A program made the translations under genes and the position numbers. Of a stretch of DNA of 64,000 nt, positions 5,328-62,193 are shown one piece after another. The stretch comes from an uncultured virus (IMG/VR IMGVR_UViG_3300046786_000599) (taxonomy: Duplodnaviria; Heunggongvirae; Uroviricota; Caudoviricetes). The stretch's first letter is position 1. Each line of letters begins with the position of its first letter. Where the stretch lies: IMG/VR virus record IMGVR_UViG_3300046786_000599. One strand, 5' to 3'. Below the pieces are notes generated by a model. It saw nothing but the letters and a program-made list of their open reading frames with translations. It ran no database searches and was not told where the DNA came from.

Positions 5328-6101
5328 ATGGAAGGTTTCTATTTCAACCCAAACAATTTTGTAATTCGTTCTATAAGCAAATCTGTTGCTAAGAATTTGA
5401 TTATAAAAAATCATTATTCTCATAAATGGACGATGTGTCAAGTTGCCTATGGCATTTTTCTTAAAGAAGAAATTGAAAATGAGTTTATAGAAGGTGATTT
5501 TGAGAAACTTGTGGGTGTATGTGTTTATGGTTCTCCTGTAGGTAGGTCTGCGGCTGATTCTTTTTGTTCTCTTGTTAAGAACGACGAAGTATTTGAGTTA
5601 ACAAGACTTTGGGTGGCTGATGGTTATGGAAGAAATGTCGAAAGTTGGTTTATATCCCAAACTTTTAAACAACTGAAAATAGAATATCCTCGTATTAAAA
5701 TAGTATTGAGTTATTCTGATGAAGAACAAGGACATAAAGGAATTATTTATCAAGCTACTGGTTTTTACTATCAAGGAAACAAATCAATTGCTTTGATGCC
5801 AAACTTTTCGGTTTCTTTAATTGGTCCTCCTTACGAATGGATACATTCAAGAACGGTTCAATCTACTTATGGTTCTCATAATGTAGAATACTTAAAAAAG
5901 AAGATAGGACATACGTTTTGGCGTAAAAAGGAGTCTACGAAACACCGTTATTTTTATGTTTTGACTAATAAGGTTGAAAAGAAGAAGATATTAGCTAATT
6001 TAAAACACTCTTGTTTACCATATCCGAAGGATACTAAGTTTGAAGAAGAAATAGAAGAAATTAAGGTGGAAACGATTAGAGAAAATCCATTTTTTACGTA
6101 A
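5328..6101 (+). CDS. Mom-family (GNAT-fold) DNA base-modification protein
   Basis: IIKNHYSH, GVCVYGSP, ELTRLW, RNVESWFIS, SYSDEEQGHKGIIYQATGFYYQG match the Mu Mom family pattern. Confidence 0.8.
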   Translation: MEGFYFNPNNFVIRSISKSVAKNLIIKNHYSHKWTMCQVAYGIFLKEEIENEFIEGDFEKLVGVCVYGSPVGRSAADSFCSLVKNDEVFELTRLWVADGYGRNVESWFISQTFKQLKIEYPRIKIVLSYSDEEQGHKGIIYQATGFYYQGNKSIALMPNFSVSLIGPPYEWIHSRTVQSTYGSHNVEYLKKKIGHTFWRKKESTKHRYFYVLTNKVEKKKILANLKHSCLPYPKDTKFEEEIEEIKVETIRENPFFT

Positions 6102-10995: not shown

Positions 10996-11015
10996 AAGTT
11001 AGAATGTACATAAAT

Positions 11016-12215
11016 ATGGGAAAAGAACATAAATTCTTCTCAAACGTAGGCGAGTTTGATTTTGAGGATGAACAAAAAAAGTTGGTTGTTAGTCTTGATA
11101 GGCTCAAATCCATGAGCGTTCAGGAGTTTACTTTTTACAAAAAGTGGGAAGAACTTCAACAGTTTAAAGATTCTGCTATTTTTACGGATGCTGAATCAGT
11201 TGAACGTCGTATATGGAGGATATTTGATGTTAACGATGAAGAATCCACTATTCAACAAATAGAAGATCTTGAACCAGAGGTCTTGTTTGTAAGAGAGGAT
11301 GATGTCAAATATTATAACGTGTGGAATACTTTGCGGTTATTTTGCCATACAATGGAATATAATCAAAATCCAGGTCGGTTTTTGAGGTTTTTGGTTTTAG
11401 ACAAAAAGACGAGAAAGTATCTTGGAGCAATGTCTGTTGCTTCTGATGTTATAGCAATAACGGATCGAGACGAATATCTTGGTTGGACATCGGATAATCG
11501 GTTAAAGGATAAAAAACTTGCTTATTCTGCTATTGGTAGTTGTATTATGGCAACGCAACCATTTGGGTTTAATTTCCTTGGTGGTAAGTTGATGGCCTGT
11601 TTGGTGACAAGCGAAATTATTAGAAATACGTGGGAAGAGTTGTATAATCAAAAACTTGTTGGTATGACCACAACGAGTTTATATGGTTCTTATTCCATGT
11701 ATAACGGAATTCCGTGGTGGCATAAGTGTGGTTCTTCATCAGGTAAAATCCTCATTAAGCCGGATCAATCGTGTTATGAAACCTGGCATCAGTGGATTAA
11801 GGACAATCGCAAGGAAGAGTATATCAAGACGATGACACAGAAAGAAGGTGTATCAGGTCCGGTGACAGGTGCTAAACTGAGAGTGTTGTCTATGATAATG
11901 GATTCTTGTGAAGTAAAACAGAAGAATTATGTTCATGGATATGAACGAGGGGTTTATTATAGTCCATTTTACATAAACACGAAAGAATTTTTACAGAATA
12001 AAATAACAGAAAAAGAGTTGATTATCCAACCAAGGATACAAGGAAATATACAATCCATAATGGACTGGTGGAAACCTAAAGCAATTAACAGATTTCGTAA
12101 GTTGTTTTCCGAGAATAATGTGAAGGATTCTGTGTTGTTTTATTTGCCGATGTGCAAGATGAAGTATGATGAAGCAAAATCAAAATATTTTGCTGATGTT
12201 GGGACAGGAAAGTAA
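11016..12215 (+). CDS. DUF4338/DruA-like (GNAT-related) protein, long form
   Basis: NPGRFLRFLV, DRDEYLGW, QPFGFNFLGGKL, TTTSLYG. Start chosen downstream of TTGACT-18-TAGAAT (10976-11005). Confidence 0.72.
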   Translation: MGKEHKFFSNVGEFDFEDEQKKLVVSLDRLKSMSVQEFTFYKKWEELQQFKDSAIFTDAESVERRIWRIFDVNDEESTIQQIEDLEPEVLFVREDDVKYYNVWNTLRLFCHTMEYNQNPGRFLRFLVLDKKTRKYLGAMSVASDVIAITDRDEYLGWTSDNRLKDKKLAYSAIGSCIMATQPFGFNFLGGKLMACLVTSEIIRNTWEELYNQKLVGMTTTSLYGSYSMYNGIPWWHKCGSSSGKILIKPDQSCYETWHQWIKDNRKEEYIKTMTQKEGVSGPVTGAKLRVLSMIMDSCEVKQKNYVHGYERGVYYSPFYINTKEFLQNKITEKELIIQPRIQGNIQSIMDWWKPKAINRFRKLFSENNVKDSVLFYLPMCKMKYDEAKSKYFADVGTGK

Positions 12216-12292
12216 AATAATTTGATTTGTGATCATATTTATGATAGGTTGGATAAGAATCAAAAAGAACATTAGAACCAACGGATAGTAAA

Positions 12293-13157: not shown

Positions 13158-13805
13158 ATGATAATAATTGGAATTACTGGATTTGCTAGGACAGGAAAGG
13201 ATCTGTATTGTAATATTGCTAAAAACATCTTAACAATGAATGGATTACACGCAAAACGATATGCTTTTGCTGACGAGTTAAAATGGGAAGTGGAACCGTT
13301 TTTAAGAAATGTTTGTGGTGTAGATGTGTGGACAGATGATATTAAGGTTAAAACGGATATTCGTGATTTTCTTGTTTGGTATGGTACTACATTTTGGAGG
13401 AAACGTGAACCTCTTAGATGGGTTAGTCGAGTAGAACGAGGAATTAAGACTGACAATCATGTTGATGTTGCTTTGGTTTCGGACGTTAGATATCCAAACG
13501 AAGGACATTGGGTTCATGCCAATGAAGGATGGTTAGTACATCTTTCGAAATATACTAAAACTTCTCCGGACGGAGGAAGAACGTGGGAAAAAATTTATCA
13601 AAAAGCTCCTAATTTAGAGGAAGAAAAGAACGATCCAATAGTTAAAAAAATGTCCGATTATCAAATTCATTGGGAAGACATGTCAAACAGCGGACAAGTT
13701 AAAATTAATATGCCGGACCTTGTAAATAATATGTATCTTAGAGAATTTGTCTTTAAGAGTTTACAAGCATGTCCTTCATTGTCTCAGAAGCTAACACAAA
13801 TGTAA
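13158..13805 (+). CDS. Deoxynucleoside monophosphate kinase (T4 gp1-like)
   Basis: IIGITGFARTGKD, AFADELK, RDFLVWYGT, VSDVRYPNE. Confidence 0.88.
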   Translation: MIIIGITGFARTGKDLYCNIAKNILTMNGLHAKRYAFADELKWEVEPFLRNVCGVDVWTDDIKVKTDIRDFLVWYGTTFWRKREPLRWVSRVERGIKTDNHVDVALVSDVRYPNEGHWVHANEGWLVHLSKYTKTSPDGGRTWEKIYQKAPNLEEEKNDPIVKKMSDYQIHWEDMSNSGQVKINMPDLVNNMYLREFVFKSLQACPSLSQKLTQM

Positions 13806-14515
13806 AAAGTCCAATATATTTATTGGAATGTACAACTCCGTCTGAAAACAAGATTTTTAGAAGTACAATAGATACATATCATTCTTACGTAAAGTATAAA
13901 GATAGTCCTACCCGTAATATTCGTTGGTTAATCTACGAATCTATTACGGGTAATTTAGTTGGTGCGGTAGGACTTTCTTCGGCTACCATTGCTGTAGCAA
14001 AACGAGACGAGTGGATTGGTTGGGATAACGTAACCAAAATGCGTAATCTAGGCAAGACAGCAAACAATTCTAGGTTCTGCTTGATTCAAAAAAACTTTAC
14101 CATAAAAAACGTCGGTTCTCTAACATTAAAACAGTTGAGAATTCAAGGAGCAATTCGTTGGAAGGAACGGTATAACGAACCCTTGGTGTTATTGGAGACT
14201 TTTGTTCAACCGAGTAGAGACAATGAATACAATGGACATTCTACAAGAAACGGATCAATTTATCTTGCAGATAATTGGGTGGACGTTGGGATGACAGCAG
14301 GTTCAAGTATTCAGAAAACTCCACTTAAACTTTGGGCAAAAGAGAATGGAGAACGTGGTAGGTTAGCCAGAGAAAATCCCGAAGAATGCCTGAAAAGATA
14401 TGCTGGTTATCTCGGAGAACACAACGCTTCTGGCTTTAAAGTCACTAAAAGTCCTAAAAAGATAATCTTCCTTAAACCGTTAGTTTTTAATTGGAAAAAG
14501 ATATTAACTACCTAA
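13769..14515 (+). CDS. DUF4338/DruA-like (GNAT-related) protein, short form
   Basis: IDTYHSY, RDEWIGW, NNSRF, WKERY..LVLLETFV, GSIYLADNWVDVGMT. Confidence 0.78.
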   Translation: MSFIVSEANTNVKSPIYLLECTTPSENKIFRSTIDTYHSYVKYKDSPTRNIRWLIYESITGNLVGAVGLSSATIAVAKRDEWIGWDNVTKMRNLGKTANNSRFCLIQKNFTIKNVGSLTLKQLRIQGAIRWKERYNEPLVLLETFVQPSRDNEYNGHSTRNGSIYLADNWVDVGMTAGSSIQKTPLKLWAKENGERGRLARENPEECLKRYAGYLGEHNASGFKVTKSPKKIIFLKPLVFNWKKILTT

Positions 14516-15138: not shown

Positions 15139-15164
15139 ACGTATATATAGATTTTAAATTGGTT

Positions 15165-16469
15165 ATGATTACATTAGATAGAAGAAAAGAATTAATCCGT
15201 TCGTTTTTAGAAGAGGTTAAACAGGAAGAATTTGTACCACAATTCTGTCACAACCTAAAATCTAACAAATCCACTGTTTACTATGGCGGACCTCTTTATG
15301 ACGACGATGAACTCGTTGAAGCGATAGATACTTTTTTGTTTGGTAAATGGTTGGCAAGTGGAGACAAGGTTGCTAAATTTGAAAATGAATTTTCCAAAGT
15401 AATAAATCTAAAATATTCATTGATGGTTAATTCTGGAAGTTCTGCTAATTTAGTGATGTTAGCTGCATTTAAGAAGTTCTATAATCTTCAAAACGATGAT
15501 GAAGTAATTATATCTGTTGTTGGTTTCCCAACATCTCTCGCTCCAATAATTCAATGTGGGTTAACCCCTGTATTTGTAGATATTGAATTTGATACTTTGA
15601 ATTTCAATTTGGATGAAGTTTTAAGAAAAATCACAAGTAAGACTAAAGCAATTTTGCTTTCCCCTGTATTAGGAAACCCTCCTGATATGGATAAATTGTT
15701 GGAGATATGTAAAACCTACAATATCCATCTCTTGGTTGATGGATGTGATAGTTTGGGAAGTAAATGGGATGGAAAAAATTTAGCCGAATATGGTGAATTA
15801 GCCAGTTGTTCATTTTATCCAGCACATCATATTACTACAGGTGAAGGCGGCATGGTGTCTTCTAACAACGAAGAACACATAAATCTTGCTAGAAGTTTTG
15901 CCTGGTGGGGGAGAGATTGTTATTGTGTCGGTCAGAACAACCTTCTCAAGAACGGAACTTGTAACTGTAGGTTTAAACAATGGATTGACGAACTTCCTTA
16001 TCCTATCGACCACAAATATTTTTATACTAACGTAGGATATAACCTCAAACCTTTAGATTTGCAGGGAGCCTTGGGTCTTGCTCAGTTGAAGAAACTAGAC
16101 CAAATTCACAACTTAAGAAAGAAGTATAAAGGTGAGATACAGAATATACTATCAATTATAAAGGGAATAAAATTTCCAACTTGGTATCCTAAATCAGAAG
16201 TGAGTTGGTTTGGTGTTCCTGTCATTTGCGATTCGATGGAAATAAAGACTAAGTTAGTAAATTACTTAGAAAATAACAGAATTCAGACAAGAAATTATTT
16301 TGCTGGTAATATTCTTGTTCATCCTGGGTTCAAAGAATATGGGAACTGGAAGGAGTATCCAAATGCCAACCAGGTTCTTGAAAAGGTGTTTTTCATTGGA
16401 TGTTCACCAACTATGACTGAAGAAAACGTTGAATATATTAGAGGCGTTGTTAAAAAATATGAATACTAA
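15165..16469 (+). CDS. rfbH: NDP-4-keto-6-deoxyglucose 3-dehydrase (RfbH/DdhC, E1)
   Basis: VNSGSSANL, SFYPAHHITTGEGG (His at the PLP Lys position), WGRDCYC..TC Fe-S motif, DHKY. Confidence 0.88.
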   Translation: MITLDRRKELIRSFLEEVKQEEFVPQFCHNLKSNKSTVYYGGPLYDDDELVEAIDTFLFGKWLASGDKVAKFENEFSKVINLKYSLMVNSGSSANLVMLAAFKKFYNLQNDDEVIISVVGFPTSLAPIIQCGLTPVFVDIEFDTLNFNLDEVLRKITSKTKAILLSPVLGNPPDMDKLLEICKTYNIHLLVDGCDSLGSKWDGKNLAEYGELASCSFYPAHHITTGEGGMVSSNNEEHINLARSFAWWGRDCYCVGQNNLLKNGTCNCRFKQWIDELPYPIDHKYFYTNVGYNLKPLDLQGALGLAQLKKLDQIHNLRKKYKGEIQNILSIIKGIKFPTWYPKSEVSWFGVPVICDSMEIKTKLVNYLENNRIQTRNYFAGNILVHPGFKEYGNWKEYPNANQVLEKVFFIGCSPTMTEENVEYIRGVVKKYEY

Positions 16470-17394
16470 AGATTTAGTCAAAAAGTGGGAAAAAACAGGA
16501 TTGTTTGATGGTTTAAAAAAAGAAAGTTCTAAAATGGCAATCCTAACCGAATCTCAAAGCAAAAAATTAATGATTGATAAGATTGATGTTTTTGGTTCAA
16601 CAGGATTCATCGGTTCACGATTTTGTGAATTATATTCTGATGAAGTCGTTCGTATTTCTAGGGAATGTAATATTCCTGATAACAAGGATGTTCTCTATTT
16701 GATTTCAACTGTAGATAATTATAACGTATTCACAGACCTTCATGTAGACATCAATACTAATCTAAACAAATTGATGGATGTGTTGGAAAATTGTAAAGAA
16801 AAAGATTTGACGTTTACTTTTGTGAGCAGTTGGTTTGTTTATGGAATATCAACTACAATACCTGTCTCCGAATTTCAACCTTGTTTTCCAAAGGGGTTTT
16901 ATTCCATTACCAAACTTGCTGCTGAACAATTGGTGGAATCGTTTTGTAAAACGTTTAAAGTTAAATACAGAATATTTAGACTTTGTAATGTATATGGCCC
17001 TAATGATAAAGGTAAATCCAAAAAGAAGAATGCTTTACAATATTTGATTGATGAAATGAAGAAAGGAAACGAAATCAATCTTTATCACGGCGGATATTTT
17101 GTAAGAGATTACATGCACGTTGATGATGTTTGTAGAGCGATGAAACTATGTATGGAAAAGGCTCCTACTAATGATGTAATAAATATCGGAAGCGGAGAAT
17201 CTGTAATATTTAAAGATTTGATTGATTTTGTTGCTAACGAAGTTGGTTATAAAGCAAAAATCAACACTGTTGAACCAACAGAGTTTCACAAAATTGTTCA
17301 AGTAAAGGATTTTTGTTTGGATAGTTCTAAATTACAAAAGTTGGGGTTTGAAAAGAAGATTTCTATAAAGGAAGGATTGAGACAATTGTTATGA
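16459..17394 (+). CDS. NAD-dependent sugar epimerase/4-reductase with 37-aa capsid-like N-terminal extension
   Basis: GSTGFIGS, SSWFVYG, YSITK, RDYMHVDD. SDR domain begins at internal ATG 16570. Confidence 0.8.
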   Translation: MNTKDLVKKWEKTGLFDGLKKESSKMAILTESQSKKLMIDKIDVFGSTGFIGSRFCELYSDEVVRISRECNIPDNKDVLYLISTVDNYNVFTDLHVDINTNLNKLMDVLENCKEKDLTFTFVSSWFVYGISTTIPVSEFQPCFPKGFYSITKLAAEQLVESFCKTFKVKYRIFRLCNVYGPNDKGKSKKKNALQYLIDEMKKGNEINLYHGGYFVRDYMHVDDVCRAMKLCMEKAPTNDVINIGSGESVIFKDLIDFVANEVGYKAKINTVEPTEFHKIVQVKDFCLDSSKLQKLGFEKKISIKEGLRQLL

Positions 17395-18245
17395 TTTTAC
17401 TTATAGGTTCAACAGGTTATATTGGAAGTGAATTTACACGTCAACTTACTGAAAATGTAGAGGATTTTCGGACAGTAAGTTATTCAGAGGTTCTAAAAAA
17501 TGGGTTTGAGTCTTATTTAACCGGAGTACGACTTGTGATTAATGCATCTGGATATACAGGAAAACCAAATGTAGATAAGGCAGAAGAAGAAAAAGATAAA
17601 TGTATTCTAGGCAATATTGTAGTTCCGATGAAATTAGTTGAATATTGCAGTAAAAAAGACATATTATATGGACATGTTTCTTCTGGATGTATCTATACAG
17701 GTAGACGTAAAGATGGAAATGGATTTGAAGAAACAGACGAACCAAATTTCACTTTTAAACACAATAATTGTAGTTTTTATAGTGGGACAAAAGCAATGGC
17801 GGAAGATTTGGTAAAATTTTACAGAAACAGTTGGATATGGAGGTTAAGAATACCATTTGACGAAGAAGACGGTCCTAGGAACTATTTAAGTAAATTGTTG
17901 AAGTATAACAAATTAATTGATTATGAAAATTCTATTTCCCACCGCAAAGAATTTGTTACTGCTTGTCTTTTAACAATACAAGAAAACGCACCATTCGGTA
18001 TATATAACGTAGTAAACACAGGAACAATTACTACGAAACAAGTTACAGAATGGATTAATGAATATTTAGATCCAAAAAAAGAGTTTGAATTTTTTGAATC
18101 GGAAGACGTGTTTTACAAAACCGCAGCAAAGGTTCCTCGTTCGAATTGCGTCTTAAGTAACAAAAAATTGTTAAGACTGAAAATTCCTATGAGAAGTGTA
18201 GAGGATGCTATAATTGATTCGCTTAGACATTGGAAAACTGTATGA
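17391..18245 (+). CDS. RmlD-like / NRS-ER bifunctional 3,5-epimerase-4-reductase
   Basis: GSTGYIG, GYTGKPNVD, HVSSGCIY, FYSGTK, WRLRIPF. Confidence 0.8.
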   Translation: MILLIGSTGYIGSEFTRQLTENVEDFRTVSYSEVLKNGFESYLTGVRLVINASGYTGKPNVDKAEEEKDKCILGNIVVPMKLVEYCSKKDILYGHVSSGCIYTGRRKDGNGFEETDEPNFTFKHNNCSFYSGTKAMAEDLVKFYRNSWIWRLRIPFDEEDGPRNYLSKLLKYNKLIDYENSISHRKEFVTACLLTIQENAPFGIYNVVNTGTITTKQVTEWINEYLDPKKEFEFFESEDVFYKTAAKVPRSNCVLSNKKLLRLKIPMRSVEDAIIDSLRHWKTV

Positions 18246-19084
18246 AAGGTATTATATTAGCAGGAGGAAGTGGGAGTCGGTTATATCCACTGACTATATC
18301 ATGTAACAAACAGTTATTACCGGTTTTTGATAAACCGATGATATATTATCCACTTTCTACTCTTATTAAACTTGGCATTCGTGATATACGAATCGTTTCT
18401 AGTTTGGAATATATGCAACGATATGTTCAGTTGTTTCAAACTGGAGAGGATTTGGGGTTAAACATTACATATGCTGTTCAGATGAAACCGAGAGGGCTTC
18501 CGGAAGCATTTATTCTTTCTGAGGATTTAATGGATGAATCAGTTAAAGAAGATATTGTGATGGTTCTTGGCGATAACATTTTTCACGGAAACATTCCTGT
18601 GGTGGATTGTTGTCAAATTTATGCTTATAAAGTTAAGAATCCTTCGGATTATGCTGTTGTAGATTTTGATGAGAACATGAAGGTGACTTCATTAATAGAA
18701 AAGCCTAAAGAACCAAAAACGAGGTATGCTGTTCCGGGTCTTTACAAACTTGATCAACGTTCCGCCAAATTTTCTAAAACGCTTCATCCGTCAGTTAGAC
18801 GTGAATGGGAAATAACAGATTTGTTAAAGTGTTATATTAATAGAAACGAAATGAGTCTGTCTATTCTTGATGAAGGGTTTGTGTGGTTAGATGCTGGTAT
18901 GCCATCTATGCTTTTTCAAGCATCTGCTTATGTTCAAACTATTCAAGAGAGAACAGGTAAGAAGATTGGTTGTATTGAAGAAGATTGTTATAAACATGGT
19001 TTTTTGACAAAAGAAAAGTTAAAGGAATTGCTTTTAAAAATTCCTAAAGGAGAATATAAGGATTATTTGGAGAATTTGTTATGA
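18242..19084 (+). CDS. rmlA: Glucose-1-phosphate thymidylyltransferase
   Basis: MKGIILAGGSGSRLYPLT, KQLLPVFDKPMIYYPLS, LGDNIF, EITD, WLDAG. Confidence 0.93.
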   Translation: MKGIILAGGSGSRLYPLTISCNKQLLPVFDKPMIYYPLSTLIKLGIRDIRIVSSLEYMQRYVQLFQTGEDLGLNITYAVQMKPRGLPEAFILSEDLMDESVKEDIVMVLGDNIFHGNIPVVDCCQIYAYKVKNPSDYAVVDFDENMKVTSLIEKPKEPKTRYAVPGLYKLDQRSAKFSKTLHPSVRREWEITDLLKCYINRNEMSLSILDEGFVWLDAGMPSMLFQASAYVQTIQERTGKKIGCIEEDCYKHGFLTKEKLKELLLKIPKGEYKDYLENLL

Positions 19085-20067
19085 ATATTTTAATTACAGG
19101 TGGATGTGGTTTTATAGGTTCTAACTTTATCAGACGAGTAATTGATAAAGAGGAAATACATAGTATATACAACTTTGACATAACCAATTATGCTTCAAAC
19201 GAATCATATTTATATGATTTAGAAGATCACCACAAATATACTCTTTTTAAAGCAGATATTAGGTCAAAATCCGACGTAATGGAAGTGTTGCGTGAACATT
19301 GGATTAACAAAGTCGTAAATTTTGCTGCTCAAACTCATGTAGATAACTCGATTAAAGATCCAGAATCGTTTGTAACTACAAACGTAAATGGAACGTTTAA
19401 TCTTTTAGAGTGTTGTAGAGAATATTGGGGAGATGAATTGGATTATAAACGGTTTGTTCATGTTTCTACAGATGAAGTTTATGGTGCGTTAGAATTAAAT
19501 GATGAATCATTCACATTAAATACCCCTTACAAGCCTAATTCACCATACTCAGCGACTAAAGCTGCGAGCGACCATCTTTGTAGAGCGTATTCAAAAACCT
19601 TCAATTTTCCTGTTATTGTTACCAATTGTTGTAACAATTATGGACCAAATCAACATTCTGAAAAGCTGATTCCTCTTACAATTAACCGATTGCTTTCTAG
19701 ACAAAATATTCCTGTTTATGGAACTGGTAATAATATTCGCGAATGGATTTATGTAGATGACCACTGCGATGCGATTTGGGAAGTGTTAACAAAGTCTGAG
19801 CCAGGAAAACAATACCTAATTGGAAGCGGATTGGAATTGACTAACTTGGAGTTGGTACAAATGTTGTGTGATTTGTTTGATAAAACCACAAACAGAACCG
19901 TTGGAGAATCCAGAGAATTAATAAAGTTTGTTAAAGACAGACCTGGACACGATTTTAGATATTCAGTAGATTCATCTCAAATTCGAAACGATTTGAACTG
20001 GAATGCAAAAGTGAATTTTGAAGAAGGTTTACAAAAAACTTTAGAATGGTATCTCAAGAAAGTTTAA
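19081..20067 (+). CDS. rmlB: dTDP-glucose 4,6-dehydratase
   Basis: GGCGFIGSNF, AAQTHVDNSI, HVSTDEVYG, PYSATKA, DRPGHDFRY. Confidence 0.95.
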   Translation: MNILITGGCGFIGSNFIRRVIDKEEIHSIYNFDITNYASNESYLYDLEDHHKYTLFKADIRSKSDVMEVLREHWINKVVNFAAQTHVDNSIKDPESFVTTNVNGTFNLLECCREYWGDELDYKRFVHVSTDEVYGALELNDESFTLNTPYKPNSPYSATKAASDHLCRAYSKTFNFPVIVTNCCNNYGPNQHSEKLIPLTINRLLSRQNIPVYGTGNNIREWIYVDDHCDAIWEVLTKSEPGKQYLIGSGLELTNLELVQMLCDLFDKTTNRTVGESRELIKFVKDRPGHDFRYSVDSSQIRNDLNWNAKVNFEEGLQKTLEWYLKKV

Positions 20068-47656: not shown

Positions 47657-48963
47657 CCTGCTTTAGGTAAGGTGATTTTCTTCAACTTTGGAAGGTTAAT
47701 AGTTTGTTGTACAGCCATCTTTGGAACAATTCTATCTAACATTGTATGAAACACTTTATCCATCTCTTGAATAGAAAATTTAACTTCATTAACTTTTCTT
47801 AGTTCTTCCGATTTAACCAAATAAGAATCGTAATGTTCATAAACTGTCTTCATTACTTCACCAGCCGCTGCGTAGTTTACATTAAACCAGCCCGATTCTT
47901 TAACAAACCATTCATTTACCGCTTCTCCCGGAATTTGTTTAAGTTCTCCTGGAAGTAACCTACAAAGTTTTGGATCCAAGAAATCAAGATGACCACTCCA
48001 ATTAGGAGCGAGAAGAGGTTTGCCACTCAATGTGGAAAGGAGAAGAGGATGTCCAAACCCCTCTCCATGAGTAAAGGAAACGTGAACCTTTACCTTTTCA
48101 TGGTTATATAGAGCATTCATTTCTTCATCGGTAAACTCGCCGTGAAGAATATAAATTTTAGGATTTTCTGGCTTTTCACCACCTAATCCATCAATGATTG
48201 ACTTAAGTTTTCCAATACAATCATATTTGTCAATTTTACAGAGAGCGGCACCGCTAGTCTTTAAAATCAAAGCAGGTTTTGATGCTTCTGGATAACCACG
48301 GAATGTTTCAATAAACGTCTTAATTAACATTCCTATGTCTTTTCTGTCAGCATTGATGTTGTTTGCTGTCCACTGTCCAACAAAGAGATAACAGAAGTTT
48401 TCTTTGATTTTAGACATGTGTTTTTCAAGATTTTCGTTTTTAACGTCGGTCTTCTTAAACACATTTGTATTAGCTCCCCAAAATAAAACTTCACATGGTT
48501 TGTCTAATTTAAGAAGTTCTTTTCTCCCATCATTAAAGTTTTTGGTGTAATTGGCTTGTTGAAAGATTTTTTGTGCATGAACAGATGTAGCAATGTTAAA
48601 ATTCATTCTATTCAATCCTTCAATCCAAGGACCTGCCGCAATAGTGCTTTCAATACCAGCAGTCATTCCAATGTTAAACTTCCCAACTGGTTGAAACTCG
48701 TTTGGAATTGTACAGTGAATAAAAATATCAGGCTGTCTATTGAGTTGTTGTTGAAGGATTTTCGGAATTAAGGCTTGGGTTTCAGCATCCTTATCCAAAT
48801 CGGATTGTAGGTTTTTCTTACTGCAATGCCCCCATCTTGTAGGAACAAGCATTAAGTCAAATTTATCATATCGCAATAAGGATTTAGCGACTGTTTCTGC
48901 CCAGTCACCGTACCCAGAACGAGTCCAACATGGGGACTGAAATACACAAAGAGGCTTACTCAT
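47653..48963 (-). CDS. Glycosyltransferase family 4-like
   Basis: TRSGYG, RKDIGMLI, THGEGFGHPLL, WSGHLDF. Confidence 0.85.
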   Translation of the reverse strand: MSKPLCVFQSPCWTRSGYGDWAETVAKSLLRYDKFDLMLVPTRWGHCSKKNLQSDLDKDAETQALIPKILQQQLNRQPDIFIHCTIPNEFQPVGKFNIGMTAGIESTIAAGPWIEGLNRMNFNIATSVHAQKIFQQANYTKNFNDGRKELLKLDKPCEVLFWGANTNVFKKTDVKNENLEKHMSKIKENFCYLFVGQWTANNINADRKDIGMLIKTFIETFRGYPEASKPALILKTSGAALCKIDKYDCIGKLKSIIDGLGGEKPENPKIYILHGEFTDEEMNALYNHEKVKVHVSFTHGEGFGHPLLLSTLSGKPLLAPNWSGHLDFLDPKLCRLLPGELKQIPGEAVNEWFVKESGWFNVNYAAAGEVMKTVYEHYDSYLVKSEELRKVNEVKFSIQEMDKVFHTMLDRIVPKMAVQQTINLPKLKKITLPKAG

Positions 48964-49850
48964 ACGTTATAAATCCTTTCTAATACGTCAGTTACATTAA
49001 TTTCATCTTCCCAAATTCTCATAAGTTTATATCCTTTTTTATTTGCTAAATTGTCTTTATATCTATCATTTTTCCACCGTCTCGACTGTTGTTCGTCCAT
49101 ATCGTCTAATTTTACATTTTTACTATGCCAATAACAACCATCAACTTCTATTATTAAGTTATTTTTTGGTATATACAAGTCAAAAATTTTATTTTCTAAT
49201 ACAAATGGAGAAATAAATTCTATATTGTGTTTTTTTAAAATATTTTTAATTTTAATCTCAGGAACGGTATTAATTCCGTGTAATCCACCATCATTCCAAA
49301 ATTTTATTAATCTTTCTGTGGTCGCTTTTCTGAGTTTTTCAATTGTTTCTTCGGAATGTTTTTTTCCATAAAAATGATTTTTGTCTCCTGTCATTTTTTC
49401 AGACATATGTTTTCTACTGTTTGGATTATTCCATCTAATGTATCTTCCAGTTTCCAAACTATTCAAATGAAACTGTTTTGTTTCATCGTTAATAGAATTC
49501 CAATAATCCTTTTTTATTTCAGACTGTAACTTTTTAAACTTATCAAATTCCGTTTTGTTTTGTTTTAACAAACTCATTTGCCGTCTACAATTCTCCGACA
49601 TCTTCTGTTTCACTTCAGGCTTTGACATTTCCATTTTAATTTTTTCTATAACTACTGGATTATCCATTGCCATTTTTGTTTTTTCGCTTATTAACTTGCG
49701 TTGTTCTTCTGTCCGTTTTCTGCCTTTGCGAGTTTCGTTAGCACAATTATAACACAAAGCATTTGTTCTATTTCCCCTATTCCAGTTACAACGATTGGAA
49801 TAGGGGATTTCGGTATTACAGTTTGGGCAACTTCTTTTCCACATATTCAT
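48960..49850 (-). mobile_element. Homing endonuclease-like protein (Zn ribbon + NUMOD3 + Vsr/DUF559)
   Basis: WKRSCPNC, NHFYGKKHSEETIEKLR, FDLYIP..IIEVDGCYWH, RIWE. Confidence 0.8.
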
Positions 49851-50277: not shown

Positions 50278-50495
50278 ATCATTATTTCTTTTGGTTCTAC
50301 TTTAAATTCTTTTTTTAAGTAATCATACATTTCTTTGACACAAACATCACAGAGATGTACTTTAATTTGATTCATATCAAAAATACTACCATACCAACTA
50401 ATCAATTGTAGCTCGGAAAAACATTCTCTCCCAGGATGTTTATCGCATAAAAACCTAGACTCTTCTGGTTGGTATTTTTGAGTTACTTCTTTCAT
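50274..50495 (-). CDS. Small putative Zn-binding protein
   Basis: CDKH..C, YGSIFD, HLCDVC. Confidence 0.6.
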   Translation of the reverse strand: MKEVTQKYQPEESRFLCDKHPGRECFSELQLISWYGSIFDMNQIKVHLCDVCVKEMYDYLKKEFKVEPKEIMI

Positions 50496-51136
50496 ACGCC
50501 TACTTCTCGTTTTTTAATCTGTTCACTATATCGTTCTTTAACAGGAACTCCCCCTGCTTCGTTATACATGTCTGCTAACGACTTTCCTGATATAATCCGA
50601 GAAACTTCTTGTTTTGGTTGAGTTTTGGTTTTATCGGTTGATCCGAATCCACCTTCACCACGTTTGGTTTTAGTCAAATCGTCTACCAACTCGAAATCAA
50701 CCAAAACTGTTGGTTCAAAAACTAACTGAGCAATAGTATCACCTTTTTTGTAGATTTTATTATAATTAACATTTCCCAAGATTCCTGTTGAGAATGGGTA
50801 TTTTAAATCTTCCGGTTGCCAAATATATTTGAATCTACAAATGACCATTCCTCGATAATCGTTGTCAATAAGCCCAATACTGTTCGATAGAACAAGATTA
50901 TACTTGCTAACGGATGATCGTGGATGAATAAGGGTATGAAACGTCATTGCTTCAGGAGCAATGAAAAGATTCGTCTCGTATTCGATATAATCTATTCTTT
51001 TCCAAAGAGTGCCTTCCGATTCTCCAACAATCTTTGGATCGGAAGTAGCAATAATATCATATCCAGCAGATACTTCCGATGCTTTTTTGGGTAAAGTAAG
51101 ACCTTCTATTTTTTTAACGTAGATTTTCATAACCAT
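50492..51136 (-). CDS. dut: Trimeric dUTPase with C-terminal extension
   Basis: SAGYDI, PRSSVS, GLIDNDYRG, IAQLV, RGEGGFGST. Confidence 0.93.
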   Translation of the reverse strand: MVMKIYVKKIEGLTLPKKASEVSAGYDIIATSDPKIVGESEGTLWKRIDYIEYETNLFIAPEAMTFHTLIHPRSSVSKYNLVLSNSIGLIDNDYRGMVICRFKYIWQPEDLKYPFSTGILGNVNYNKIYKKGDTIAQLVFEPTVLVDFELVDDLTKTKRGEGGFGSTDKTKTQPKQEVSRIISGKSLADMYNEAGGVPVKERYSEQIKKREVGV

Positions 51137-57679: not shown

Positions 57680-57829
57680 ATGGGTCGCAAAAAATTAAAT
57701 AGAAACAAAGAAGAAATCCGAGAACAAAATCGGTTGCGTGCTCGTAAATATTATGAGAGACATAAAGACAAGATCAAACAAAACAGAATGCGAAGATATT
57801 GGGAAAGTTTGGAAGAGAAATTGTTCTAA
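57680..57829 (+). CDS. Small basic MGRKK-type protein (49 aa, not in ORF track)
   Basis: MGRKKLNRNKEEIREQNRLRARKYYERHKDKIKQNRMRRYWE; TATTTATT directly upstream; similar to 62153-62314. Confidence 0.65.
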   Translation: MGRKKLNRNKEEIREQNRLRARKYYERHKDKIKQNRMRRYWESLEEKLF

Positions 57830-58457
57830 GTGTGGCGTTGAGATGGTTTATAATCACCAATCCAATTTTTGTCGAAGTAAGAGAACCAATGCCAAGTGTA
57901 TTCGGTGTCGTCACGACGGCCAACTTATAGGACGAGTTCAGTCGGAAGAAGAAAAAGAAAAACGGGCTAAAAAACTTAGAGGAAAGAAAAGAAGTTTAGA
58001 ATCGAGAAAAAAATACTCCGAATCTAAAATTGGAAAAAACAATCCGCGGTTTGGAAAACACACGTTAAAATCGGAAGAACATAGACGGAAAATTAGACTA
58101 TCCTGCATTGAAACTATTAAAAAACGTTTAGAATCAGTTGGGAAAACTATGCGTCCGAGTTTTAACATTAATGCATGTAAAGCAATAGATGAATATGGAA
58201 AATTGCATGGATATAACTTTCAACACGCAATGAATGGCGGAGAATATCATATTAAAGAATTGGGATATTGGTTGGACGGTTATGATGAAGACAAAAACAC
58301 AGTTATTGAATTTTTTGAAAACAACCACTGGCACAGAAAAAACAAAAATAAAGATTTAAACCGAGGGAAAGAGATAGTTGACTTTCTGGGGTGTGAGTTT
58401 ATAATACTAAGAGAACAGATTGGAGGCATTTATTTACCAGAATATTTTTTGCGATAA
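57753..58457 (+). mobile_element. Homing endonuclease-like protein (Zn ribbon + NUMOD3 + Vsr-like)
   Basis: WKRNCSKC, KNNPRFGK, SEEHRRKI, YWLDGYDEDKNTVIEFFENNH. Confidence 0.72.
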
Positions 58458-61098
58458 GAAGAATGATTTAGTATATCTTTGGGATGACGAACAGGGAATG
58501 CGGTCTTTTAAATTCCAAAAGTATGCTTACAGAAGACGTACTGGCGGTCAGTATAAATCAATGTATGGTGATGATTTAGAGAAAACTATTCATTTCGACC
58601 CCCGTGATCAAGATGTTTTTGAAGGCGATGTTCCTCTCGAAACGAGAATTTTGATTGATGGTTATGAAAATTCAGATGAACCGTCCAAAGGACATAAGGT
58701 TTTAATTTTCGACATCGAGGTTAGTTCCGAAGGTGGATTTCCTGTAATTGAAACTGCTGATAAGGAAATTACCGCTATTGCTTTATACGACAAAGTTGCT
58801 GATCAGTATCACGCTTTGATTGTAGATAAGGATTACAAAATCAAAGATGAAGATAAAGGCAACGTTTTCATCCGATCTTATCAGAATGAAGAGTCGCTTT
58901 TAAAAGCATTTCTCAATAAGTGGGAAGAAATTCAACCAACAATTGTAAGCGGTTGGAACATTGACTATTTTGATGTGCCTTATATTCACAACAGAATTAA
59001 GGTTGTATTGGGTGAAAGAGATGCTGGTAGACTGTCTCCAATTGGAATTTGTTATATGAACAAATTCAATAAAAAAATGGTGGTTGCTGGAGTTTCTTGT
59101 TTGGATTACATTTTACTTTATAAGAAGTTTATTGGAAAAAACCGACCATCTTATGCTTTGGGTCAGATTGGTAAGTTAGAAGTAAAGATGGATAAAATCG
59201 AGTATAAAGGTTCTCTAAATACTTTGTATAAAGAAGATATCCAAAAGTATGTAGATTACAACTTGAACGACGTTTATATTGTTAAAGCATTGGATGATAA
59301 ATTCAAGTATATTGAACTTGCCAGAGAGATTTGCCATGTTGGACATGTTCCTTATGAATGGTTTCATATGTCATCAAGGTATCTTGAAGGGGCAATCCTA
59401 ATGGATTTGAGGCGGAATAAGTTGGTTGCTCCGAACAAACCTATCAATGGAGCAGAAGAACTTGAACAGAAGGAGGCTGACGGTGAAGAGGGGTTTGAAG
59501 GAGCATATGTTAAACGTCCTGTTCCTGGTCGGTATGATTGGTTGTATGATTTGGACCTTGCATCAATGTATCCAAATATCGTCATTACACTCAATATCAG
59601 TCCGGAAACCAAAGTCGGAAAAGTTCGTTCTGTGGAACTTACTCCAGAAGGAGGAAAGTATTTCACGGAAAAACTAAAAGGACGTTATGCTGAGTTAGAT
59701 GAAAAAGATCAAAAAAACTTATCCGAGTTTGATTATGTTAAAATGCATATCAGTGATTTTGATTCCGACTGTTTTTCTCAGAATTATATTTCTAATGTAG
59801 ATTTGGGTGGTTCAAAATATACAATTGAGGATTTCAAGAAACTGCTCACCGAAGAAAAACTTGGAATTAGTAGTAATGGTGTAATTTACGTAAGTCAACA
59901 ACAAGGCGTTATTCCTAAGTTGTTGAGCCAGTGGTTCAAACAACGTAAGGAAATGCGTCAACTTTCCAAGAAATACCATGATGAAGATAATAAAGAATTG
60001 GAAGAGTATTACGACAGAAAACAATATACTTGGAAAATCATGCTTAACTCCATGTATGGTGGCCTTGGTTTGCCGGTTTTCCGTTTTTATGATGTTGACA
60101 ATGCTGCTGCTGTAACAGTGACAGGTGTGACAATTATTCAAACGACTGGTAAACTGATTAATCAGTATTATAGGAACGTTTGTAAGACAAATGAGGATTA
60201 TGTGGTTTATCAAGATACCGATTCTTGTTTCGTTTCTGCGGTTCCTATTGTTAAGGTTAGAAATCCTAATATGGATGTTTCTGCTACTGAAAGTAATGAA
60301 GAAATGGTAAAAGCAATTCTCGGAGTTGCTTCCGAAATTCAGGATTTCATTAATAAAACTTATACAGTAATGGCAAAAAGAATGTTCAATGTAGATAAAC
60401 ACACATTGGAGATTAAACAAGAAATCATATCAACCACAGGGTTCTGGCTTGCTAAGAAACGATATGCTCAATGGAGAATCAATGAAAACGGTAAATACAT
60501 CAAGGATGATAAACACAAACTTGAAGTAAAAGGAATTGACGTTGTTAGAACAAGTTTTCCTGCTAGGTTTAGGTCATTTTTAGAAGAGATATTAAAAGAC
60601 ATTTTGGCTAAAAAGCCTAAAGAAGAAATTGATGAAAAGATTCTTGCTTTTAGAAAAGGATTGAAAGATTTATCTGTGACGGATGTTGCTAAAAATACAT
60701 CCGTCAAATTTTTGAGTCAAGATGGCAAAACCAATTATGACCCCAAATCAAGACATCCATTTCATATTGTTTCTGGAACACCAGCTCAAGCAAAAGCTGC
60801 TATATACTACAACGATTTGTTAAAGAAATTCAATCTACAAGTTAAAGTAGAAAAAATCCATAGCGGTAGTAAAATTAAATGGGTTTATTTAAAAGGCAAC
60901 CCACATTGTATGGATTGTTTAGCGTTTAAAGCAGATGGAACCGATCCAGATAAAATAATGGAAATCATTAATACTTACATAGATAAGAAGGGTTTGTACG
61001 AACATGAATTGAGAGGTAAATTAATGGATTTCTATACAATTCTCGGATGGAATTTTCCATCGGCAGATGCTAGAAAATCATTGGAGTTTTTCTCATGA
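58420..61098 (+). CDS. Family B DNA polymerase (T4 gp43-like); start may be ATT at 58432
   Basis: FDIE, GWNIDYFD, YNLND, DLASMYP, KIMLNSMYG, YQDTDS, KKRYA, KGIDVVR. Confidence 0.95.
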   Translation: MEAFIYQNIFCDKKNDLVYLWDDEQGMRSFKFQKYAYRRRTGGQYKSMYGDDLEKTIHFDPRDQDVFEGDVPLETRILIDGYENSDEPSKGHKVLIFDIEVSSEGGFPVIETADKEITAIALYDKVADQYHALIVDKDYKIKDEDKGNVFIRSYQNEESLLKAFLNKWEEIQPTIVSGWNIDYFDVPYIHNRIKVVLGERDAGRLSPIGICYMNKFNKKMVVAGVSCLDYILLYKKFIGKNRPSYALGQIGKLEVKMDKIEYKGSLNTLYKEDIQKYVDYNLNDVYIVKALDDKFKYIELAREICHVGHVPYEWFHMSSRYLEGAILMDLRRNKLVAPNKPINGAEELEQKEADGEEGFEGAYVKRPVPGRYDWLYDLDLASMYPNIVITLNISPETKVGKVRSVELTPEGGKYFTEKLKGRYAELDEKDQKNLSEFDYVKMHISDFDSDCFSQNYISNVDLGGSKYTIEDFKKLLTEEKLGISSNGVIYVSQQQGVIPKLLSQWFKQRKEMRQLSKKYHDEDNKELEEYYDRKQYTWKIMLNSMYGGLGLPVFRFYDVDNAAAVTVTGVTIIQTTGKLINQYYRNVCKTNEDYVVYQDTDSCFVSAVPIVKVRNPNMDVSATESNEEMVKAILGVASEIQDFINKTYTVMAKRMFNVDKHTLEIKQEIISTTGFWLAKKRYAQWRINENGKYIKDDKHKLEVKGIDVVRTSFPARFRSFLEEILKDILAKKPKEEIDEKILAFRKGLKDLSVTDVAKNTSVKFLSQDGKTNYDPKSRHPFHIVSGTPAQAKAAIYYNDLLKKFNLQVKVEKIHSGSKIKWVYLKGNPHCMDCLAFKADGTDPDKIMEIINTYIDKKGLYEHELRGKLMDFYTILGWNFPSADARKSLEFFS

Positions 61099-61536: not shown

Positions 61537-62193
61537 TTAAATAACAATCCACCCTTTACAGTTGTTGCTTCTTTTATGGATTAAGTTGTAAAGGTTTGCT
61601 TTATCAAAACTGTATTTTTTAGAAAAGTCGGAACGTATTCCTATAAATGTCTTTTTGGTTATTACATTTAGAAATGTAAACATTGTTTTGTTAGGAGTTC
61701 CCATTTTTAATCTTGTTTCATTTGAATGCGTTTTTCCAAAATTTGGATTTTTTGAACCTATATATCTACCTTTCATCAGATTGCTTTGTCGTTGTTTTTG
61801 TTCTTCTGTATGTCTGAACTCAAAATGGATTTTTAATTTTTTATGAGTTTTGCTCATTTTTTCTTTTGTGGTTTTGTTATGAACTCTGTTTCTCATTGGA
61901 GCGATGGCATCAAAACAAATATTATAAGTTTTGTCTGGTTCTGATTTTGCTATATCCAAATATTTTTGTTCAATTAATAACAAATCGTTTGACTGAACAT
62001 TTTCTATTACAGAATATGACCATACCGATTTTTCATACTTATTCCAGGCATTTTGGAGTTTCGGATTATTATGTCGGTTTTTATTTAAAAGCCGTTTGTG
62101 GTCATAAAATCTTTTTTGTATATTACTACTGCTACCAACATAGTAATTTCCGTTAGTTTCGTTGATTATTTTGTATATTCCGCTTATTTTCAT
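61537..62193 (-). mobile_element. GIY-YIG homing endonuclease with NUMOD3 motifs
   Basis: SGIYKI..YYVGSS, HNNPKLQNAWNKY, EQKYLD, NPNFGKTHSNETR. Confidence 0.9.

Follow-up and report, generated by a model that had tools for sequence, protein, structure and literature searches.

The window (the whole stretch of DNA analysed, 64,000 nucleotides) contains, at 16459–17394 on the plus strand, an open reading frame of 311 residues in which a leader of 37–38 residues is followed by an ordinary nucleotide-sugar SDR (Table 1). Pfam assigns the complete protein to the Epimerase family (PF01370; E = 4.8e-34) and to PF16363 (E = 1.4e-25), and 3469 SDR homologs were found at E ≤ 1e-5. The Rossmann motif GSTGFIGS occupies residues 46–53; the GxxGxxG stretch G46-S-T-G-F-I-G52 and residues Y148 and K152 of the YxxxK motif are invariant across 15 aligned SDR homologs. 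No NCBIfam equivalog reached its cut-off for the SDR (dTDP-glucose 4,6-dehydratase, for example, gave 103 bits against 365). The Gp23 family (PF07068) was matched neither by the 311-residue protein nor by the leader alone. On these comparisons, the tagged protein is not a capsid protein and shares with Gp23 just the propeptide motif described below.

The tagged gene lies between the gene for an RfbH-like sugar 3-dehydrase, which scores 389.6 bits against the NCBIfam RfbH model and thus falls under the cut-off of 423, and the genes for an RmlD-like reductase, RmlA and RmlB. The ATG at 16459 is in frame with that at 16570, with no stop codon between them, and it overlaps the end of the RfbH-like gene (TAA at 16467–16469) by 11 nt; the earlier note had described the frame and the overlap correctly and had read the identical peptide. 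A start at 16459 makes four of the four operon junctions overlapping, whereas a start at 16570 would leave a gap of 100 nt. It had also been suggested that the peptide links the glycan island to the virion. This link is a weak one: the motif is indeed borne by one of the window's SDR-type genes (at least six in number), but a six-frame scan of the 64 kb revealed no second copy, leaving the SDR as the sole carrier.

Capsid, scaffold and protease genes of the source phage were not found within the 64-kb window. The DNA polymerase encoded in the window is 41–50% identical to those of three of five related phage records with the same capsid type. An exact 53-mer taken from the window had no match in IMG/VR. 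The closest IMG/VR contig (54 kb; DNA polymerase 77% identical) and two other fragments lack the motif. Genomes in this phage group appear to be very large: a complete relative measures 353 kb, and the 54-kb relative is rated as 12% complete. Two DruA-like genes are present in the window, 2–5 kb upstream, as are homing endonuclease genes, which also adjoin capsid genes in other records.

Table 1. Features of the tagged SDR gene and its operon (positions in the window).
Feature	Position	Strand	Remarks
RfbH-like (DegT family) sugar 3-dehydrase gene	15159..16469	+	PF01041, E = 1.9e-76; stop overlaps start of tagged gene
37-codon leader as first flagged	16459..16569	+	Copy of capsid-propeptide core motif
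38-residue cassette (MN / cassette / KIDVF)	16465..16578	+	Defined against untagged alleles ≥90% identical; edges ± a few residues
First motif half, KWEKTGLFDG (residues 9–18)	16483..16512	+	End of helix 1 and turn
Candidate gp21-type prohead protease site, L29-T30-E31	16543..16551	+	L/I-X-E; cut after Glu
Second motif half, ESQSKKL (residues 31–37)	16549..16569	+	In helix 2
Extended-SDR body, stop codon included	16570..17394	+	PF01370 and PF16363; nucleotide-sugar reductase or epimerase type
RmlD-like reductase	17391–18245	+	Translationally coupled; start overlaps preceding stop as ATGA
RmlA	18242–19084	+	Translationally coupled; ATGA overlap with preceding stop
RmlB	19081–20067	+	ATGA overlap; end of coupled operon (17391..20067 after the SDR)

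The leader had drawn attention through a remembered resemblance to the N-termini of gp23-type capsid proteins (L..KW..tGLLeGL...LLEnQ.k.L). This pattern proved to be real and to lie within the portion that gp23 loses during maturation, which in T4 is a propeptide of 65 residues (PMC5694885, PMC9026906); the gp23 N-termini of T6 and S-PM2 can be aligned with the leader. A tblastn search with the 37 residues against 50,697 phage records matched seven, the best two hits falling in the N-terminal part of T4-like capsid proteins, those from Mel-JY01 (residues 25–57; E = 0.05) and LR756508. A profile of four leaders gave 126 matches at E ≤ 1e-3 among 1.84 billion proteins, including capsid proteins of full length (1.1e-6 and 8.6e-5). 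At least 490 loci in IMG/VR were confirmed by tblastn, and the best 80 all place the motif at about residues 22–65 of Gp23-type capsid proteins. The similarity on which the earlier note's reading turned is present far above chance level, with profile E values down to 1e-6 and in 80 of the 80 best loci. None of 2000 shuffled leaders reached the score of the leader (50.5 bits; shuffle maximum 13.2), a control that is partly circular because the leader itself was used to find the motif sets. A search of Pfam with the leader alone (hmmscan) returned nothing, but this result is uninformative because the Gp23 model begins after the propeptide (its match in the capsid protein of Mel-JY01 starts at residue 71), leaving the motif in the unmodelled N-terminal part. 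PHROGs yielded phrog_37273 at E = 0.09 only, and among PDB sequences the leader profile found no gp23, only chance-level matches to a SMAD MH1 helix (E of 0.012–0.057) and one cilia protein. Taken together, these comparisons show true relatedness between the leader and the conserved propeptide core of gp23, the T4-like major capsid protein.

The motif was defined as KW.K(T)G(L/I)(L/F)(D/E)G, a spacer of 9–13 residues and (L/I)xE(S/N)Q.K.L, arranged as a helix-turn-helix, and the leader displays every one of these elements. Four leaders representing three SDR lineages were aligned (the window's, P0001, P0011 and P0013); K9, W10, K12, G14 and D17 in the first half and E31, S32, Q33, S34, K35 and L37 in the second are invariant among them. 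KW.KTGLL.G occurs without variation in a set of 44 capsid proteins that was chosen partly by that pattern. Capsid proteins carry ENQAKQL, whereas non-capsid carriers carry ESQ.KQL, and the signature D17, S32 and S34 is common to the leaders and to other non-capsid carriers, unlike the capsid proteins. The leaders score 47.7–61.6 bits against a model of the non-capsid motif versus 25.7–50.5 bits against the capsid model. By these scores and residues, the leader is the variant typical of non-capsid proteins (GLL-D-G and E-S-Q). AF2 predicts helices at residues 3–12 and 23–34 of the leader, connected by a loop, at a pLDDT of 42–59 compared with about 90 for the SDR body. A helix-turn-helix is predicted in the full capsid precursor too (mean pLDDT 64; propeptide 58–73), at values too weak for a packing partner of the propeptide to be read from this model. 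Prediction of a complex between the capsid propeptide of a stand-in phage (residues 1–70; A5) and its putative scaffold (A6, from the family of acidic ORFs that precedes the capsid gene) scored 0.00, which weighs neither way.

Close alleles define the leader as a discrete cassette. Among sequences at least 90% identical to the window's SDR there are four tagged (eight contigs), five untagged (17 contigs) and one fragment of 112 residues; the tagged (311 residues) and untagged (273 residues, beginning MNK-IDVF) forms differ by a clean indel of 38 residues. The untagged sisters P0012 and P0014 likewise have the N-terminus M(N)KIDVF. The earlier note's placement of the SDR start at ATG 16570 is not supported by these alleles. 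As the untagged SDRs begin MNK-IDVF, the native start is, on this comparison, the same ATG at 16459, and the added piece is an insertion after codon 2, not an upstream extension. Direct repeats at the cassette edges were considered as a cause of its precise loss and rejected, the only pair being a 6-nt AAGATT, whose two copies are separated by 110 nt and not in frame with each other.

Conservation across lineages shows that the SDR is translated together with its leader, which is under purifying selection. Homologous SDRs keep the extension, which the earlier note had seen as worth following, in three lineages; identity between lineages is 46–62% in the leader and 59–64% in the body, and the leader alignment has 15 invariant positions and an intact frame without a break. 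In the window's protein, P0001, P0011 and P0013 the leader directly precedes strand 1 of the SDR (residues 1–37 or 3–40). Independent gene calls record the 311-residue form, and P0248 is identical to the window's open reading frame. The leader is absent from 116 of the 120 SDR homologs listed, in which only 3–10 residues precede strand 1, and it was seen in none of 80 metagenome loci among the matches listed, all of which are at most 60% identical to the SDR. Six apparent long metagenome matches were rejected as alignment spill-over.

The motif is also found on proteins other than the SDR. At least 14 non-capsid proteins were confirmed by hand to bear it, some with two copies; in several small proteins it is internal or near the C-terminus. 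This count rests on the hand-checked carriers, since the automatic division of the 126 matches (36 capsid, 29 too short, 61 other) over-called the last class with capsid fragments that have divergent or chimeric tails. In one family of small proteins unrelated to the SDR, P0125 and the product of L085:6001-6339 share 76% identity and are set apart by a clean in-frame indel of 44 residues that corresponds to the same motif. Several small accessory carriers are encoded amid small hypothetical genes, away from the head module, and the complete 353-kb phage record contains three weaker motif ORFs in addition to its capsid protein. P0135, P0147, P0162 and P0164 have the appearance of chimeras in which a capsid N-terminus is joined to unrelated sequence. 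Searches of a word index, which is insensitive, retrieved only P0001 when residues 1–42 were used; with a 40-residue leader profile, the index of longer proteins gave three tagged SDR clusters and P0122 and no further enzyme class.

A candidate processing site coincides with the motif Glu. The gp21 protease of T4 cleaves at L/I-X-E (PMC9026906, section 2.5), and by this rule, which may not be that of the present clade, three of the four aligned leaders have a fit at this position: LTE31 in the window and P0001, and LME in P0011, which also has LDE; P0013 shows no fit. The capsid counterpart of E31 is E52, invariant in the 44 capsid proteins. A second invariant capsid residue, E61, is presumed to be the maturation site; the leader of P0011 extends to its LDE at this position, where the window and P0013 have Asp instead of Glu. 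Peptidase_S77, the gp21 family, is above cut-off in five of five related phage records with such a capsid protein.

These observations lead us to propose, at slightly less than an even chance, that the leader targets the SDR to the capsid as a propeptide mimicking that of the capsid protein itself, and that LTE31|S is where the protease is likely to cut. The leader is a portable copy of the helix-turn-helix propeptide core, translated together with the SDR. During head assembly it would take up the same contacts with the scaffolding core or shell interior as the capsid propeptide, so that part of the tagged enzyme would be built into proheads; a gp21-type protease would then cleave after Glu31, freeing a near-native SDR within the head, ready for ejection into the next host. 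The sequence comparisons establish homology to the propeptide, translation under purifying selection, the cassette behaviour and the occurrence of the protease family in related phages; binding, packaging, cleavage and the role of a packaged enzyme are all inferred here. The layout of the leader fits that of known capsid-targeting propeptides in being N-terminal and flexible and, in three of the four aligned leaders, in having a candidate L/I-X-E site. In T4, foreign proteins are packaged by short N-terminal propeptides alone (PMC9026906, sections 2.6–2.7; PMC9958956, section 3.1); the route by which proteins otherwise reach the T4-type core counts as unresolved in a 2023 review (PMC9958956, section 3.1), in line with PMC9026906 (sections 2.6–2.7). 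Several observations count against packaging: the tag is dispensable, 17 of the 25 close-allele contigs being untagged, as are 116 of the 120 listed homologs and the 80 more distant metagenome loci; P0013 offers no L/I-X-E fit at the motif Glu; the reason for carrying a single enzyme out of a sugar pathway of several steps as cargo is not obvious; and the motif is internal or near-C-terminal in several small proteins.

Conservation and modularity would fit equally well if the motif were functional in docking the protein to an assembly-stage factor (prohead protease, chaperone, scaffold or capsid protein) without packaging, whether to switch the enzyme off or on at a given time or to modulate or compete with capsid assembly. 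Motif copies that are internal or duplicated, as in small proteins, are easier to reconcile with a binding module than with a propeptide confined to the N-terminus, and the invariant Glu of the motif stands in an L/I-X-E context. The capsid-size-redirecting proteins of phage satellites, which exploit likeness to capsid or scaffold, offer a parallel. A sugar-operon enzyme would, however, be an odd vehicle for an assembly modulator, and in four of the four tagged SDR forms examined the motif is N-terminal and directly before the cargo, the classic propeptide layout; we regard docking without packaging as unlikely, though not negligible. It is very improbable that the motif serves as a decoy, a look-alike on abundant non-structural proteins that titrates a host-defence or rival-phage factor recognizing the capsid precursor. 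Such a role would be in keeping with the occurrence of the motif on several small accessory proteins among small hypothetical genes outside the head module, and with the two DruA-like genes 2–5 kb upstream, but would leave the fusion to an enzyme and the N-terminal position unexplained; moreover, we know of no defence system that senses the propeptide part of gp23.

The remaining explanations deny the leader a function. Recombination, illegitimate or associated with homing, might have placed a piece of a capsid-type gene in frame, where it is simply tolerated, the alternative that the earlier note itself had raised. Its presence or absence among alleles at least 90% identical shows that the enzyme works without it, homing endonuclease genes occur beside capsid genes and in the window, and P0135, P0147, P0162 and P0164 are chimera-like. 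Against this, the leader has been kept in three lineages having diverged about as much as the enzyme body (46–62% versus 59–64% identity), with 15 invariant positions and an unbroken frame, and it shares D17, S32 and S34 with the other non-capsid carriers and scores higher against their model; since a neutral stretch of 111 nt would not outlast a body divergence to 59–64%, a plain relic is distinctly unlikely. That the leader is untranslated, the gene beginning at ATG 16570 behind a frame open by chance, is scarcely credible, even though this start would give MIDKIDVF, resembling ordinary SDR N-termini, and no strong Shine–Dalgarno sequence precedes either ATG (16459 or 16570). P0011 and P0013 keep the leader yet have no Met at the position equivalent to 16570, amino-acid conservation extends across lineages, the MNK- of the untagged alleles corresponds to codons 1–2 of the long form, and the operon is coupled throughout. 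A start at 16570 alone is, on this evidence, close to refuted.

The reading as a capsid-targeting propeptide would have consequences beyond this gene. It is conceivable, although rather doubtful, that very large T4-like phages direct proteins in general to the interior of the head by means of a portable capsid-propeptide mimic, with the cassette moving in frame between genes and loading small accessory proteins and at least one working sugar-nucleotide reductase, to be delivered with the DNA to the next host. If so, the gp23 propeptide core itself would dock proteins to the scaffolding core, which would explain core localization in T4 too, and the present SDR would be the first case found in which a metabolic sugar enzyme has the phage head as its destination. 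Searches of the literature outside subscription journals brought up no non-capsid protein described as bearing a tag that resembles a capsid propeptide. A capsid propeptide core seemingly pasted in frame onto unrelated proteins, with tagged and untagged alleles coexisting at above 90% identity, constitutes a natural experiment. It offers a short, defined peptide as a candidate scaffold- or shell-docking element, and it could be used to package cargo into T4-like phages for delivery, as is done now with the T4 capsid-targeting sequence (CTS).

Encapsulin cargo-loading peptides are likewise short and portable and load enzymes into an HK97-fold shell, but they differ from the leader in being usually C-terminal, shell-binding and uncleaved, and to our knowledge they have no sequence relation to the motif. 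Compared with untagged SDR orthologs from phages and bacterial sugar operons, the window's SDR has a body that is 59–95% identical, with the same Rossmann and YxxxK motifs, and 38 extra residues after codon 2. The gp23 propeptide has the same core as the leader, KW..(T)GLL(E/D)G, a spacer and (L/I)xE(N/S)Q.K.L, with the same helix-turn-helix and with the Glu of L/I-X-E in helix 2; the leader has no counterpart of the first ∼22 residues of that propeptide or of the Gp23 fold, sits on an SDR enzyme and has the D/S variant signature. The proposed way of working parallels that of the CTS of T4 (internal proteins IPI–III and Alt), which is N-terminal and cleavable, brings unrelated cargo into the scaffolding core and is portable between proteins, its carriers being small, variable accessory proteins. 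As described in PMC9026906 and PMC9958956, the CTS has 10–19 residues, whereas the leader has 37–38 and derives from a capsid propeptide; CTS targeting has been demonstrated by experiment (Mullaney and Black 1996, via PMC9026906 and PMC9958956), whereas the leader is known from sequence only. The ejection and inner-head proteins of the giant phages SPN3US and phiKZ differ in having A/S-X-E rather than L/I-X-E sites and no sugar-pathway enzyme among their cargo, and no resemblance of their propeptides to the capsid protein's own has been reported. The phage group of the window would share very large genomes with them. These propeptides, too, are longer than the CTS; they have several protease sites, of which the leader has candidates, N-termini that are conserved across diverged paralogs, and a targeting role that has been inferred (PMC5694885).

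The leader-bearing SDR gene reads as one 311-residue frame from ATG 16459 to TGA 17392-17394, stop-free through ATG 16570 in the window sequence, and its ATG overlaps the stop of the upstream RfbH-like dehydrase gene by 11 nt, confirming the earlier note's reading of an in-frame leader with a coupled-type start. The gene is the second of a coupled operon (RfbH-like dehydrase, tagged SDR, RmlD-like reductase, RmlA, RmlB) in which the three junctions downstream of it are ATGA overlaps; a start at 16570 would leave a 100-nt gap, the only one in the operon. The GSTGFIG and Y148xxxK152 motifs of the SDR body are invariant in an alignment of 15 homologs, and an NCBIfam scan of the protein gave no equivalog at or above the cut-off.

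The pattern of gp23 N-termini given in the earlier note proved right. A tblastn search with the 37-residue leader against 50,697 phage records matched seven, the top two being N-terminal regions of T4-like capsid proteins: that of Microcystis phage Mel-JY01 (residues 25-57, 45% identity, E 0.05) and that of LR756508, a 484-kb uncultured phage. A profile of four known leaders (A1), searched against 1.84 billion representative proteins, gave 126 matches at E<=1e-3, most of them capsid N-termini or their fragments, with full-length capsid proteins at E 1.1e-6, 8.6e-5 and 9.4e-4. At least 490 IMG/VR loci carry the motif as confirmed by tblastn; in all 80 that were kept it lies at approximately residues 22-65, and the encoded proteins match by blastp the capsid protein of Mel-JY01 (itself Pfam Gp23, E 1e-79); the PHROG assignment 'major head protein' was confirmed for two of these. 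The same stretch of T6 and S-PM2 gp23 (GenBank records) aligns with the leader, and the likeness in sequence is well beyond chance. A Pfam scan of the leader gave no match because the Gp23 model covers the Mel-JY01 protein only from residue 71 onward. PMC5694885 and PMC9026906 describe the first 65 residues of T4 gp23 as a propeptide that the prohead protease gp21 removes, and the motif therefore lies wholly within the cleaved part.

Of the 120 SDR homologs that scored best, three library proteins (P0001, P0011 and P0013) carry this leader and one carries an unrelated one; in the remaining 116, strand 1 is preceded by 3-10 residues. The bodies of these three lineages, with the window belonging to that of P0001, are 59-64% identical and their leaders 46-62%, with 15 invariant positions and the frame intact, a conservation that non-coding DNA would not maintain. 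Neither P0011 nor P0013 has a methionine at the Met38 position, and independent gene calls gave a protein (P0248) identical to the 311-residue ORF. P0001 falls in a ten-member cluster at 90% identity: four tagged (311 residues, 8 contigs), five untagged (273 residues, 17 contigs) and one fragment. At the N-terminus the short forms read MNK-IDVF or MSK-IDVF, matching residues 1-2 and 41 onward of the long form, and therefore define a clean 38-residue insertion after codon 2; they place the native start codon at 16459 in both forms and do not support the earlier note's placing of the SDR start at ATG 16570. Untagged sisters of P0011 and P0013 also begin M(N)KIDVF. In the SDR tree, tagged rows occupy three separately supported places within one 31-row clade, requiring at least three state changes. 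Since leaders and SDR bodies have diverged to the same extent, the fusion is probably old, the distribution of the tag reflecting repeated loss or exchange of alleles and not recent spread.

The motif also occurs on at least 14 non-capsid proteins, twice in some, and in a complete 353-kb phage record three ORFs other than the capsid gene have weaker versions of it. P0125 and the ORF L085:6001-6339 are 76% identical, and the clean 44-residue indel between them is the motif. The SDR leaders scored 47.7-61.6 bits against a model of non-capsid copies and 25.7-50.5 bits against one of capsid copies, a comparison that is indicative only, both sets having been found with the leader profile. P0125 and its relatives (L085:6001-6339, L087:1488-1919, P0122, P0127, P0136 and P0217) share the N-terminus MSSL.S..RKLNP.KVW.A..., have no Pfam or PHROG match and carry zero, one or two motif copies as in-frame indels; the family is encoded among small hypothetical genes. 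In the 353-kb record, a minus-strand ORF of ~126 residues (L181, G001:C1 ~12193-12231) is a short paralog of approximately the first 100 capsid residues, with the motif and an LP.LVR-like stretch and without the capsid fold. P0135, P0147, P0162 and P0164 have a complete capsid N-terminus at the start or within, continuing into unrelated sequence (a GT1-like C-terminal motif, a DnaB-like Walker region, a glycine-rich stretch and a long coiled coil), and may be either real fusions or chimeras produced by assembly. In two uncultured phages a homing endonuclease gene of GIY-YIG type (L006:4781-5542, L007:4663-5418) lies directly 3' of the gene for the major capsid protein, and T6 has an annotated one at that place (L183:2169-2840), a possible driver of recombination around the capsid gene.

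AF2 predicts the SDR body at pLDDT ~90 and the leader as a loose helix-loop-helix (pLDDT 42-59), the same form as predicted for the capsid propeptide. Two glutamates are invariant across 44 capsid proteins, E52 (in LLE|NQ) and E61 (in L-x-x-E|A, just past the motif), and both fit, as candidate sites, the T4 gp21 rule of cleavage after Glu in L/I-X-E (PMC9026906 section 2.5). The first candidate site in the window leader is LTE31|S; the second is an Asp in the window and in P0013, and P0011 keeps both. According to section 2.6 of PMC9026906, Asp at that position in the T4 capsid targeting sequence (CTS) blocks processing and leaves targeting intact. The gp21 protease family scored above the cut-off in all five related phage records with this capsid-protein type, three of which have polymerases 41-50% identical to that of the window.

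The presence of a capsid-propeptide-like leader on an SDR is a solid and unusual observation, and the leader is homologous to the gp23 propeptide, translated, selected and modular. From its helix-loop-helix form, the L/I-X-E sites, the gp21 family in relatives and T4 propeptide biology we infer, as the most likely reading, a putative capsid-targeting propeptide, which would mimic the capsid protein's own propeptide and thereby target the SDR to the capsid. Sections 2.6-2.7 of PMC9026906 describe a short N-terminal propeptide as sufficient to bring foreign proteins into the T4 core, where gp21 releases them. Against targeting, the tag is dispensable and, with three 90% clusters among 5.8 billion proteins, rare; the motif is internal in several small proteins, and packaging a single enzyme out of a long pathway has no obvious use. 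Across the whole 64 kb, none of the other five SDR-type genes has the tag, nor does any other ORF, those of the glycan island included. The leader might instead dock the protein for regulatory ends or to interfere with assembly, or be a tolerated relic or a decoy.

The window, a fragment from a large, uncultured T4-like phage with AT-rich DNA, has genes for a gp43-type polymerase, a DnaB-type helicase, a clamp loader and ribonucleotide reductase, followed by a sugar island of ~35 kb; no head genes were found in the window. The two DruA-like ORFs flank clamp-loader-like and dNMP-kinase-like genes in a replication module, an unexpected place for a defence-system (Druantia) protein family. The Mom-like gene adjoins ribonucleotide reductase and, with the dUTPase-like gene, hints at modified DNA. 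Homing-endonuclease-like ORFs flank the polymerase gene, the first (57738-58457) overlapping its start region. The IMG/VR contig closest to the window (77% identity in the polymerase) spans 54 kb, with a CheckV completeness of 12%, and a 125-kb relative is rated 31% complete; the genome of this phage is probably several hundred kb.

Coordinates of the tagged gene and of other features of the window
Feature	Position	Strand	Remarks
Mom-like DNA modification protein	5328-6101	+	phrog_1384 E 1.3e-50
DruA-like ORF	11004-12215	+	PF14236 E 3.3e-25
DruA-like ORF	13769-14515	+	PF14236 E 2.4e-18
RfbH-like dehydrase	15159-16469	+	
Tagged SDR	16459-17394	+	extended SDR body, residues 41-311, PF01370 E 4.8e-34
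Leader insertion	~16465-16578	+	
Glycan island	20054-49850	mostly -	~30 kb; three more SDRs; second DegT aminotransferase; two B12-binding radical SAM enzymes; aldo-keto reductase; split thiamine-enzyme pieces (E1_dh and Transket_pyr); GT2, GT10, GT11 and GT1-like transferases; nucleotidyltransferases; heptose-kinase-like GHMP kinase
NUMOD3/DUF559 endonuclease	48960-49850		end of glycan island
dUTPase-like gene	50492-51136		
Homing-endonuclease-like ORF	57738-58457		
DNA polymerase	58420-61098		
Homing-endonuclease-like ORF	61537-62193		

Full-text literature searches, with subscription journals outside the coverage, brought up no account of a non-capsid protein bearing a capsid-propeptide-like tag. 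A defined peptide of this kind makes T4-type core localisation testable. The leader is not a member of the Gp23 family, because it lacks the capsid domain present there. It differs from the T4-type CTS in length and, as a putative targeting propeptide, would resemble, in its way of working, both the CTS and the long propeptides that giant phages have on their ejection proteins.
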